Shown in pieces: positions 16,230 through 17,054 of a stretch of DNA of 54,893 nucleotides; within the stretch, counting starts at the first letter, position 1, and each line of letters starts with the position of its first letter. Source of the stretch: a virus (lineage: Duplodnaviria; Heunggongvirae; Uroviricota; Caudoviricetes); the IMG/VR virus record IMGVR_UViG_2880378312_000013; one strand, 5' to 3'. Both the position numbers and the translations under genes were made by a program. The notes beneath the pieces are model-generated. The model was not told where the DNA came from and ran no database searches. It saw only the letters and a program-made list of their open reading frames with translations.

Positions 16230-17054
16230 TTGCAATGTTCATTAATATACGTCTCACGAATAATTCATAGATATTGCAAAATGGATATTACTGAGTTTCC
16301 TTCTGGAGTAATTGAACACCTTGGCTGGTATGTATACCGATTGATTGATCCGAGGGACGGAAGCACCTTCTATGTAGGGAAAGGCAAAGGTAACCGCGTA
16401 TTTGCCCATATGCGCGGTGAAGTGGCAGCGACTGATGATGACGAGTTACTGAGCAACAAGCTAAAGCAAATTAGAGAAATAAGGTTAGCAGGACTTGAGG
16501 TTATCCATGTCATCCATCGACACGGAATGACTGATGAAAAGACGGCGTACGAAGTCGAAGCAGCACTTATTGATGCCTACCCTGGGTTAACGAATATCAT
16601 GAATGGTGCTGGCAGCAATGAATTCGGCGCCGCGCATGTCAAAGAGTTGATAGCAACATATCAACCCGAAACCATAACATTTCATCATAAAGCATTAATG
16701 ATTTCCGTTAACAGAAGTGCAAAGGATTCAGAGCTTTATGATGCGGTTCGATTTAGCTGGCGCATTAATGTCTCTCGCGCCAGCCAAGCAGAAGTCATTC
16801 TTGCTACTGTAAGGGGGATCGTTCGAGGGGTTTTCATTGCTGATAAATGGCTCAAATCAACACGTGAAAATTTCCCTACGATGAAATACTGGGACGAGGA
16901 TCCGGACTTTGAGGCAACACAAAGTTCTCGCTATGGTTTTGAAGGTCGAGAAGCCCCACCTGAAATAGCAAATCTTTATCTTGGAAAAAAAATACCAGAT
17001 GAATTAAGAAAAAAAGGAGCTATGTCCCCGGTCCGTTACTCACCTAATTTTTGA
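16230..17054 (+). CDS. GIY-YIG nuclease-domain protein with uncharacterised C-terminal domain
   Basis: GWYVYRL...[10 protein letters not shown]...E...N pattern matches GIY-YIG catalytic residues; about 170 further residues with no recognised motif; probable start at MDITEF. Confidence 0.6.

Follow-up and report, generated by a model that had tools for sequence, protein, structure and literature searches.

An intact gene beside the pin invertase of an Escherichia coli O157:H7 prophage very probably encodes the type IV restriction enzyme CMoRE (PD-T4-3)

Introduction

The 54,893 nt stretch of DNA analysed here (the window) corresponds to an Escherichia coli O157:H7 chromosome and contains an intact prophage of approximately 39.5 kb. 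At one end of this prophage, beyond the tail-fibre genes and the gene for a serine invertase, lies an open reading frame that was described in an earlier note, made from the letters alone, as a GIY-YIG nuclease-domain protein in a cargo position where restriction or defence genes are often carried. This raises the question of what the protein does, and whether its place next to the invertase has any meaning. We show below that the gene is very probably an intact copy of CMoRE, also named PD-T4-3, to which, as judged from sequence, the published mechanism would carry over. The system itself is already known, and since its enzyme family, structure and specificity have been published, nothing new is added here on its mechanism.

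PD-T4-3 was obtained when genomic fragments of E. coli were selected functionally for protection against phage T4. Validation was done with one gene alone, 'COG3680 (GIY-YIG)' of ECOR68, cloned with 189 nt of upstream DNA, while a second clone was identical in sequence and came from a different genomic context (PMC9519451). CMoRE under its native promoter reduces plating about 10^5-fold for T2, T4 and T6, and cultures carrying it survive infection at a high multiplicity of infection (Liu et al., PMC12923530). The purified enzyme degrades DNA containing 5-hydroxymethylcytosine (5hmC) or glucosyl-5hmC (5ghmC), and not DNA with C or 5mC, with T4 containing ordinary cytosine, T4(C), escaping restriction; cleavage occurs at CN11/N9G, leaving 2-nt 3′ overhangs, needs two modified sites and has no strict sequence requirement, and mutation of the active site abolishes activity as well as defence (PMC12923530). 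Deletion of PD-T4-3 in the clinical isolate NILS69 gave sensitivity to Tevenvirinae (PMC12409345), and a Capnocytophaga homologue with 48% identity is modification-dependent too and also cuts Mu DNA (PMC12366544).

Results

Coding sequence and start codon

The open reading frame at positions 16230–17054 on the plus strand is real and uninterrupted in the ORF list of the window, and the ORF list and RefSeq bear out that it runs opposite to the tail operon, with the gene also being convergent with pin. The TTG at 16230, from which the frame had been counted, is most likely not the start codon, as the ATG at 16281, located 51 nt downstream, fits better and is almost certainly the true start, giving a protein of 257 aa encoded by 774 nt including the stop codon. 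This ATG was preferred because several lines of evidence agree: it is the RefSeq start in identical E. coli O157:H7 chromosomes (WP_000355484.1, 'LEM-3-like GIY-YIG domain-containing protein'), the same Met opens the aligned CMoRE homologues including the distant phage ones, the ORF of the ECOR68 PD-T4-3 clone has the same length of 774 nt (PMC9519451), and the numbering of residues in the CMoRE paper (Y17, Y19, Y31, R80, V92, L96 and Y127) is compatible only with this start. The coordinates of all features are given in Table 1.

Table 1. Positions of features in and around the prophage, numbered over the whole window
Feature	Position	Strand	Basis or remark
Lamassu LmuB, split in three ORFs	10476–11135, 9855–10445, 9289–9855	-	
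Lamassu LmuC	11101–11574	-	
Lamassu LmuA, split in two ORFs	12149–12565, 11559–12176	-	
Left prophage boundary, 47-nt copy of the thrW 3′ half	13912–13958	.	Exact direct repeat
AraC-family regulator	14713–15465	-	
Degenerate fragment resembling the 3′ part of tRNA-Ser	~16033–16100	-	
Conserved upstream region of the cassette	16088–16280	+	88–96% identical in tRNA-Pro and ssrA prophages
Candidate promoter, TTGTGA and TAATAT, 17 nt apart	16220–16225, 16243–16248	+	Conjectural; 8/12 consensus matches, under the scan threshold
CMoRE / PD-T4-3 CDS, 257 aa and stop	16281–17054	+	PADLOC PD-T4-3 match, PDB 9U75 match, RefSeq WP_000355484.1
N-terminal part	16281–16610	+	PF22945 on aa 28–110; invariant residues; published active-site mutagenesis (98.4% identical protein)
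Codons D52-D53-D54-E55, four-acidic run of the autoinhibitory loop	16434–16445	+	Translation
C-terminal 5hmC/5ghmC-sensing domain, ~aa 125–257 (boundary approximate), including Y127	16653–17051	+	Published 5hm-dCTP complex
Hairpin between convergent CMoRE and pin	17074–17115	.	Fold of 17050–17125: -19.8 kcal/mol, z = -2.9
pinE serine invertase	17115–17669	-	RefSeq start; longer ORF to 17714
Inverted repeats (20 nt) of the invertible tail-fibre segment	17732–17751, 19615–19634		95% complementary
Tandem 15-nt repeat units	45975–46049		Early region of prophage
Right partner repeat	53449–53495		Within tRNA-Thr 53450–53525; integrase adjoining complete tRNA-Thr

Relationship to CMoRE and PD-T4-3

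The protein matched the PADLOC PD-T4-3 model PDLC04031 with E = 2.4e-140, with residues 1–256 aligned to model positions 1–255 of 256, and was matched end to end by PHROG 5356, while NCBIfam contained no family matching it. Comparison with the PDB entries for E. coli O157:H7 CMoRE (9U75 and 9U8D) covered residues 1–257, of which 253/257 were identical (98.4%, E = 3.7e-172 for 9U75), the four differences between the window protein and 9U75 being T51A, E55D, Q169K and N197H. The entries for the APEC O1 protein (9U7U and 9U7Z) matched over the full length with 219/257 identical residues and 38 differences. Cleavage dependent on 5hmC or 5ghmC and protection against T-even phages have been demonstrated experimentally for these two proteins, which are 98.4% and 85% identical to that of the window, and for the ECOR68 clone. 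All residues named in the CMoRE paper are found at matching numbers (Y17, Y19, Y31, R80, V92, L96, Y127 and D52–E55), including the tetramer-interface residues V92 and L96.

The crystallised O157:H7 sequence is the allele of strains 86-24 and EDL933 (WP_000355475.1), and the window carries a second allele, which is present in other O157:H7 genomes and in many other E. coli, with the coding sequences of the two sharing 96.5% DNA identity. Since an IS remnant is present in the same region and a P4-like satellite with a fragmented Lamassu-type system nearby, it could be argued that the gene is a relic, either intact in sequence and unexpressed, or disabled by the four substitutions. We consider this quite improbable: the reading frame is intact with all functional residues retained, E55 and N197 are also found in the active APEC O1 protein, Q169 (CAA codon) recurs in the aligned DNA of three other strains, the exact protein is encoded on approximately 1000 or more contigs, and the gene is carried by 834 of 5426 complete E. 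coli genomes (~15%). The 1.9-kb stretch comprising the gene and pin likewise gave a single match covering at least 80% of its length in 546 genomes. The gene was therefore assigned to CMoRE/PD-T4-3, because it has an uninterrupted frame and all the named residues, and because the exact protein is widespread, and the window allele would be expected, from this similarity, to act like the published proteins.

The GIY-YIG nuclease domain

The assignment of the N-terminal part to the GIY-YIG nucleases holds, as Pfam family PF22945 (LEM-3_GIY-YIG) matched with 54.2 bits, above its curated cut-off of 27, which places the protein in the GIY-YIG superfamily, whereas the score for the classical GIY-YIG family PF01541 (13.9 bits) was under its cut-off of 22.6. 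In an alignment including homologues with 31–45% identity, residues Y17, Y19, Y31, G33, K34, G35, R39, H43, E93 and N105 were invariant. The pattern of Y, Y, R, E and N that had been recognised from the translation is genuine, because the corresponding residues (Y17/Y19, Y31, R39, E93 and N105) remain invariant in homologues down to 31% identity, and the concern that the catalytic residues might be missing on proper alignment is dispelled, with all of them present. The three tyrosines Y17, Y19 and Y31 form the GIYxY-YIG motif defined in the CMoRE paper (PMC12923530), and are accompanied by R39 and E93. Because that paper gives the catalytic Arg and Glu without numbers, these were assigned from conservation, and most likely correspond to R39 and E93.

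In CMoRE, the loop joining helices alpha2 and alpha3 contains four acidic residues in a row and covers the active site, and its 4A mutant loses discrimination, also cuts ordinary DNA and is toxic; the loop is found in most, not all, members (PMC12923530). The acidic run reads DDDE in the window allele versus DDDD in the crystallised protein. A single-sequence AlphaFold model of the window protein had a mean pLDDT of 38, too poor for use.

A GIY-YIG fold is also found in conventional type II restriction enzymes such as Eco29kI and Hpy188I, and one homologous cassette adjoins a type II restriction-modification pair (see below), which would be in line with a type II enzyme working with a partner methyltransferase. 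The likelihood of this is practically negligible, since there is no methyltransferase gene from the left prophage end (13958) to pin, so that the methylase is lacking nearby, and the published enzyme depends on modification rather than being blocked by it (PMC12923530). CMoRE in the window is organised as a single gene with neither a methylase nor an immunity partner, and is flanked by pinE and, at its other end, by non-coding DNA and then the AraC-family regulator gene.

The C-terminal domain

The part following the nuclease domain had been noted as about 170 aa of unknown function. With the corrected start it is reduced to ~135–145 aa, and its function is no longer unknown because it corresponds to the published domain for sensing 5hmC and 5ghmC, on which 5hm-dCTP sits, hydrogen-bonded to the main chain of Y127 (PMC12923530). 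Within this domain, positions 169 and 197 are the only two at which the window protein and 9U75 disagree. The domain search proposed in the earlier note did not retrieve any Pfam family for the C-terminal 137 aa (aa 121–257), even at E ≤ 10, and a PDB profile search with a 7-sequence alignment retrieved only CMoRE entries and chance matches near E = 1, with no UvrC or other GIY-YIG structure. According to its authors, the CMoRE C-terminal domain has no homologue by sequence or structure (PMC12923530), and our own Pfam and PDB profile searches agree, in that the domain had no relatives outside CMoRE.

These searches also bear on an alternative reading, in which the gene encodes a homing endonuclease with a GIY-YIG domain, like I-TevI or the Seg enzymes, and would spread by cutting a specific site in prophages without it. 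Such a role would fit the annotation 'putative homing nuclease' of homologues in jumbo phages, and the sharp borders of a ~1-kb cassette containing the gene in several unrelated prophages. It is highly improbable nevertheless, since a near-identical protein spares unmodified DNA and has no strict sequence requirement (PMC12923530), Pfam detected no homing-type DNA-binding module in the C-terminal part, and the left border of the cassette is not constant between contexts. With differing left borders no common target site is apparent, and the reservation that the gene might turn out to be a homing endonuclease with a target site in the prophage hence found no support. In the absence of both a Pfam family on aa 121–257 and a common target, the protein was not classified as a homing endonuclease.

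Proposed mode of action

Following the published work, which established the mechanism on a protein with 4 of 257 residues different, the CMoRE enzyme of the window would form a tetramer, as a dimer of dimers, in which the C-terminal domain would bind 5hmC or glucosyl-5hmC. Two modified cytosines approximately 21 bp apart would be required, with the N-terminal GIY-YIG domains cutting between them, while the acidic loop over the active site would repel ordinary DNA. Repulsion of ordinary DNA by this loop would leave unmodified and 5mC-containing host and prophage DNA spared, and so no methylase or immunity partner would be required. Incoming T-even DNA would be degraded early with the cell surviving, which amounts to direct defence rather than abortive infection.

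A cassette with a candidate promoter and a hairpin

Comparison of prophages showed that upstream DNA, gene and hairpin together form a cassette of ~1 kb (16088 to ~17114), which is 88–99% conserved across prophages with unrelated further flanks, and which contains CMoRE as its sole ORF. The G+C content of the gene is ~43%, versus 55–60% in the tail genes. The cassette is located at thrW in strains 86-24 and EDL933, in a decayed prophage, it adjoins paoD in two strains, and it was also found at tRNA-Pro, where there is no invertase, and in a lambdoid prophage at ssrA, where a type II restriction-modification pair lies next to it. Its left border varies, lying inside mcrA in an e14-like prophage and at a tRNA-Ser-like fragment elsewhere. 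The thrW locus of EDL933 and 86-24, which carries the other CMoRE allele, has frameshifted replication genes and truncated tail genes.

The upstream region of the cassette is 193 nt in length, close to the 189 nt present in the functional ECOR68 clone, and its first 118 nt (16088–16205) share only 88% identity with the corresponding DNA of the 86-24 allele. The hexamers of the candidate promoter are conserved in those contexts that share the common upstream region, which also argues against a silent gene, and the window allele would be expressed from its own promoter within the ~190 nt upstream. Native CMoRE promoters vary in strength, with that of APEC O1 being weak (PMC12923530). The hairpin downstream accompanies the cassette even in contexts without pin, and probably serves as terminator for both directions; its minus strand weakly matches the terminal hairpin of an Rfam sRNA model. 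A promoter and terminator scan gave no sigma-70 site at threshold on the plus strand upstream of the gene and called no terminator, and because the scan called neither, we infer the promoter and the hairpin from conservation and folding.

The DNA directly upstream of the cassette contains what looks like the degenerate 3′ part of a tRNA-Ser gene, for which the Rfam matches were weak (E = 0.0005 for a model antisense to plastid tRNA-Ser, and E = 0.59 for tRNA-Sec). The fragment is common only to other thrW contexts, with the cassette border elsewhere being located at its edge, and is perhaps what is left of a former attachment site.

The prophage and its neighbourhood

The prophage is bounded by direct repeats of the thrW 3′ half, with its structural genes running leftward and ending in the tail-fibre genes. 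Both strands of the Pin-invertible segment (17732–19634), which is bounded by the inverted repeats next to pinE, carry alternative C-termini for the fibre, together with assembly genes. The region from pin to the left prophage end consists of ~3.1 kb of accessory DNA comprising CMoRE, the tRNA-Ser-like fragment, the AraC-family regulator and an IS remnant. The regulator gene, between the prophage end and the CMoRE cassette, has a G+C content of ~34–35% and gave no PADLOC match. The prophage also contains, in its early region, a tandem array of four 15-nt units (CAGATTTTGACGGGT-like), which may be iterons of a replication origin. The P4-like satellite is located to the left of the prophage (9289–12565, minus strand), where its Lamassu-type system is apparently broken, with LmuA and LmuB split into several ORFs and one of the pieces marked as frameshifted by RefSeq.

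The slot between pin and the prophage end

The placement of the gene had been likened to that of mcrA next to pin in e14, and this analogy turned out to hold directly. Strain 82.0311 contains an e14-like prophage at icd in which CMoRE adjoins pinE and sits beside a remnant of mcrA, with only the last 144 nt of mcrA left; the corresponding position in e14 of K-12 has mcrA in full, and the two prophages match from their icd end as far as the 3′ part of mcrA, where homology ends. As the cassette overwrote mcrA in this e14-like prophage, one type IV restriction enzyme was swapped for another in the same slot.

The wider suggestion that cargo is carried next to the invertase held in prophages whose gene order ends with pin, and did not extend to P2-like prophages. 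In three of these, a related invertase has tail-fibre genes on one side and tail-sheath genes on the other and no adjoining cargo, so that the slot belongs to prophages with pin last before the attachment site rather than to all invertases, and a general rule of cargo beside any invertase was rejected.

We tentatively put forward, as an idea that we consider doubtful at present, that the e14-type slot from pin to the prophage end is a dedicated exchange point for type IV nucleases, with a self-contained ~1-kb CMoRE cassette of promoter, gene and hairpin moving among unrelated prophages at thrW, icd, tRNA-Pro and ssrA, and displacing mcrA. Separately, and as part of the same tentative proposal, the common allele (T51, E55, Q169 and N197) might differ from the crystallised one in substrate range.

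Discussion

The reading of the gene as a restriction or defence nuclease is supported, as it encodes a full-length member of PD-T4-3/CMoRE, an experimentally demonstrated type IV enzyme (PMC9519451; PMC12923530; PMC12409345). Strains with this prophage should resist T-even phages bearing hydroxymethylated or glucosylated cytosine, which is relevant to phage biology and phage therapy. The modest addition made here is comparative, and consists of the recognition of a ~1-kb cassette at the tail-fibre end of different prophages, with mcrA overwritten in one e14-like prophage.

Comparison with known systems

Full-length homologues of CMoRE are encoded by jumbo phages (250–285 kb) of Serratia, Pectobacterium, Pantoea, Pseudomonas and Klebsiella, examples being Serratia phage Moabite (4001–4765) and Pseudomonas phage OBP (3992–4753). 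These proteins, annotated as homing or GIY-YIG endonucleases, have 38–45% identity over 97–99% of the protein, and in the alignment they keep all catalytic residues and lack the four-acidic run. They could serve to attack co-infecting phages whose cytosine is modified. A more distant homologue of 255 aa (31–33% identical), with the two-domain layout and catalytic residues as in CMoRE, was found in Escherichia phage CMS-2020a (108 kb, 3956–4723) and in PhiR41_1.

Outside its own family, CMoRE resembles UvrC and LEM-3/ANKLE1 in its catalytic fold and in the residues Tyr, Arg and Glu, and differs from these in having one more tyrosine (Y17 or Y19), an acidic insertion of 15 residues and another partner domain. 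UvrC is the nearest structure to CMoRE according to its authors (PMC12923530). The PvuRts1I/AbaSI family consists, like CMoRE, of type IV enzymes dependent on 5hmC and 5ghmC, but has nuclease and reader folds unlike those of CMoRE. Enzymes of this family cut ~11–12 and 9–10 nt from the modified cytosine and leave 2-nt 3′ overhangs, a geometry very similar to that of CMoRE.

McrA of e14 (EcoKMcrA) is also a modification-dependent type IV nuclease without a methylase, and occupies the same slot from pinE to the prophage end. The two proteins are unrelated, with McrA being an HNH nuclease and CMoRE a GIY-YIG nuclease, and mcrA of K-12 is co-directional with pinE whereas CMoRE is convergent with pin. 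The closest known system remains CMoRE/PD-T4-3 itself (Vassallo et al. 2022, PMC9519451; Liu et al. 2026, PMC12923530), with which the window gene has in common its length, two-domain layout, acidic loop, interface residues, Y127 and single-gene organisation; the crystallised allele of EDL933 and 86-24 sits in a decayed prophage at thrW, whereas the copy in the window is part of an intact prophage.
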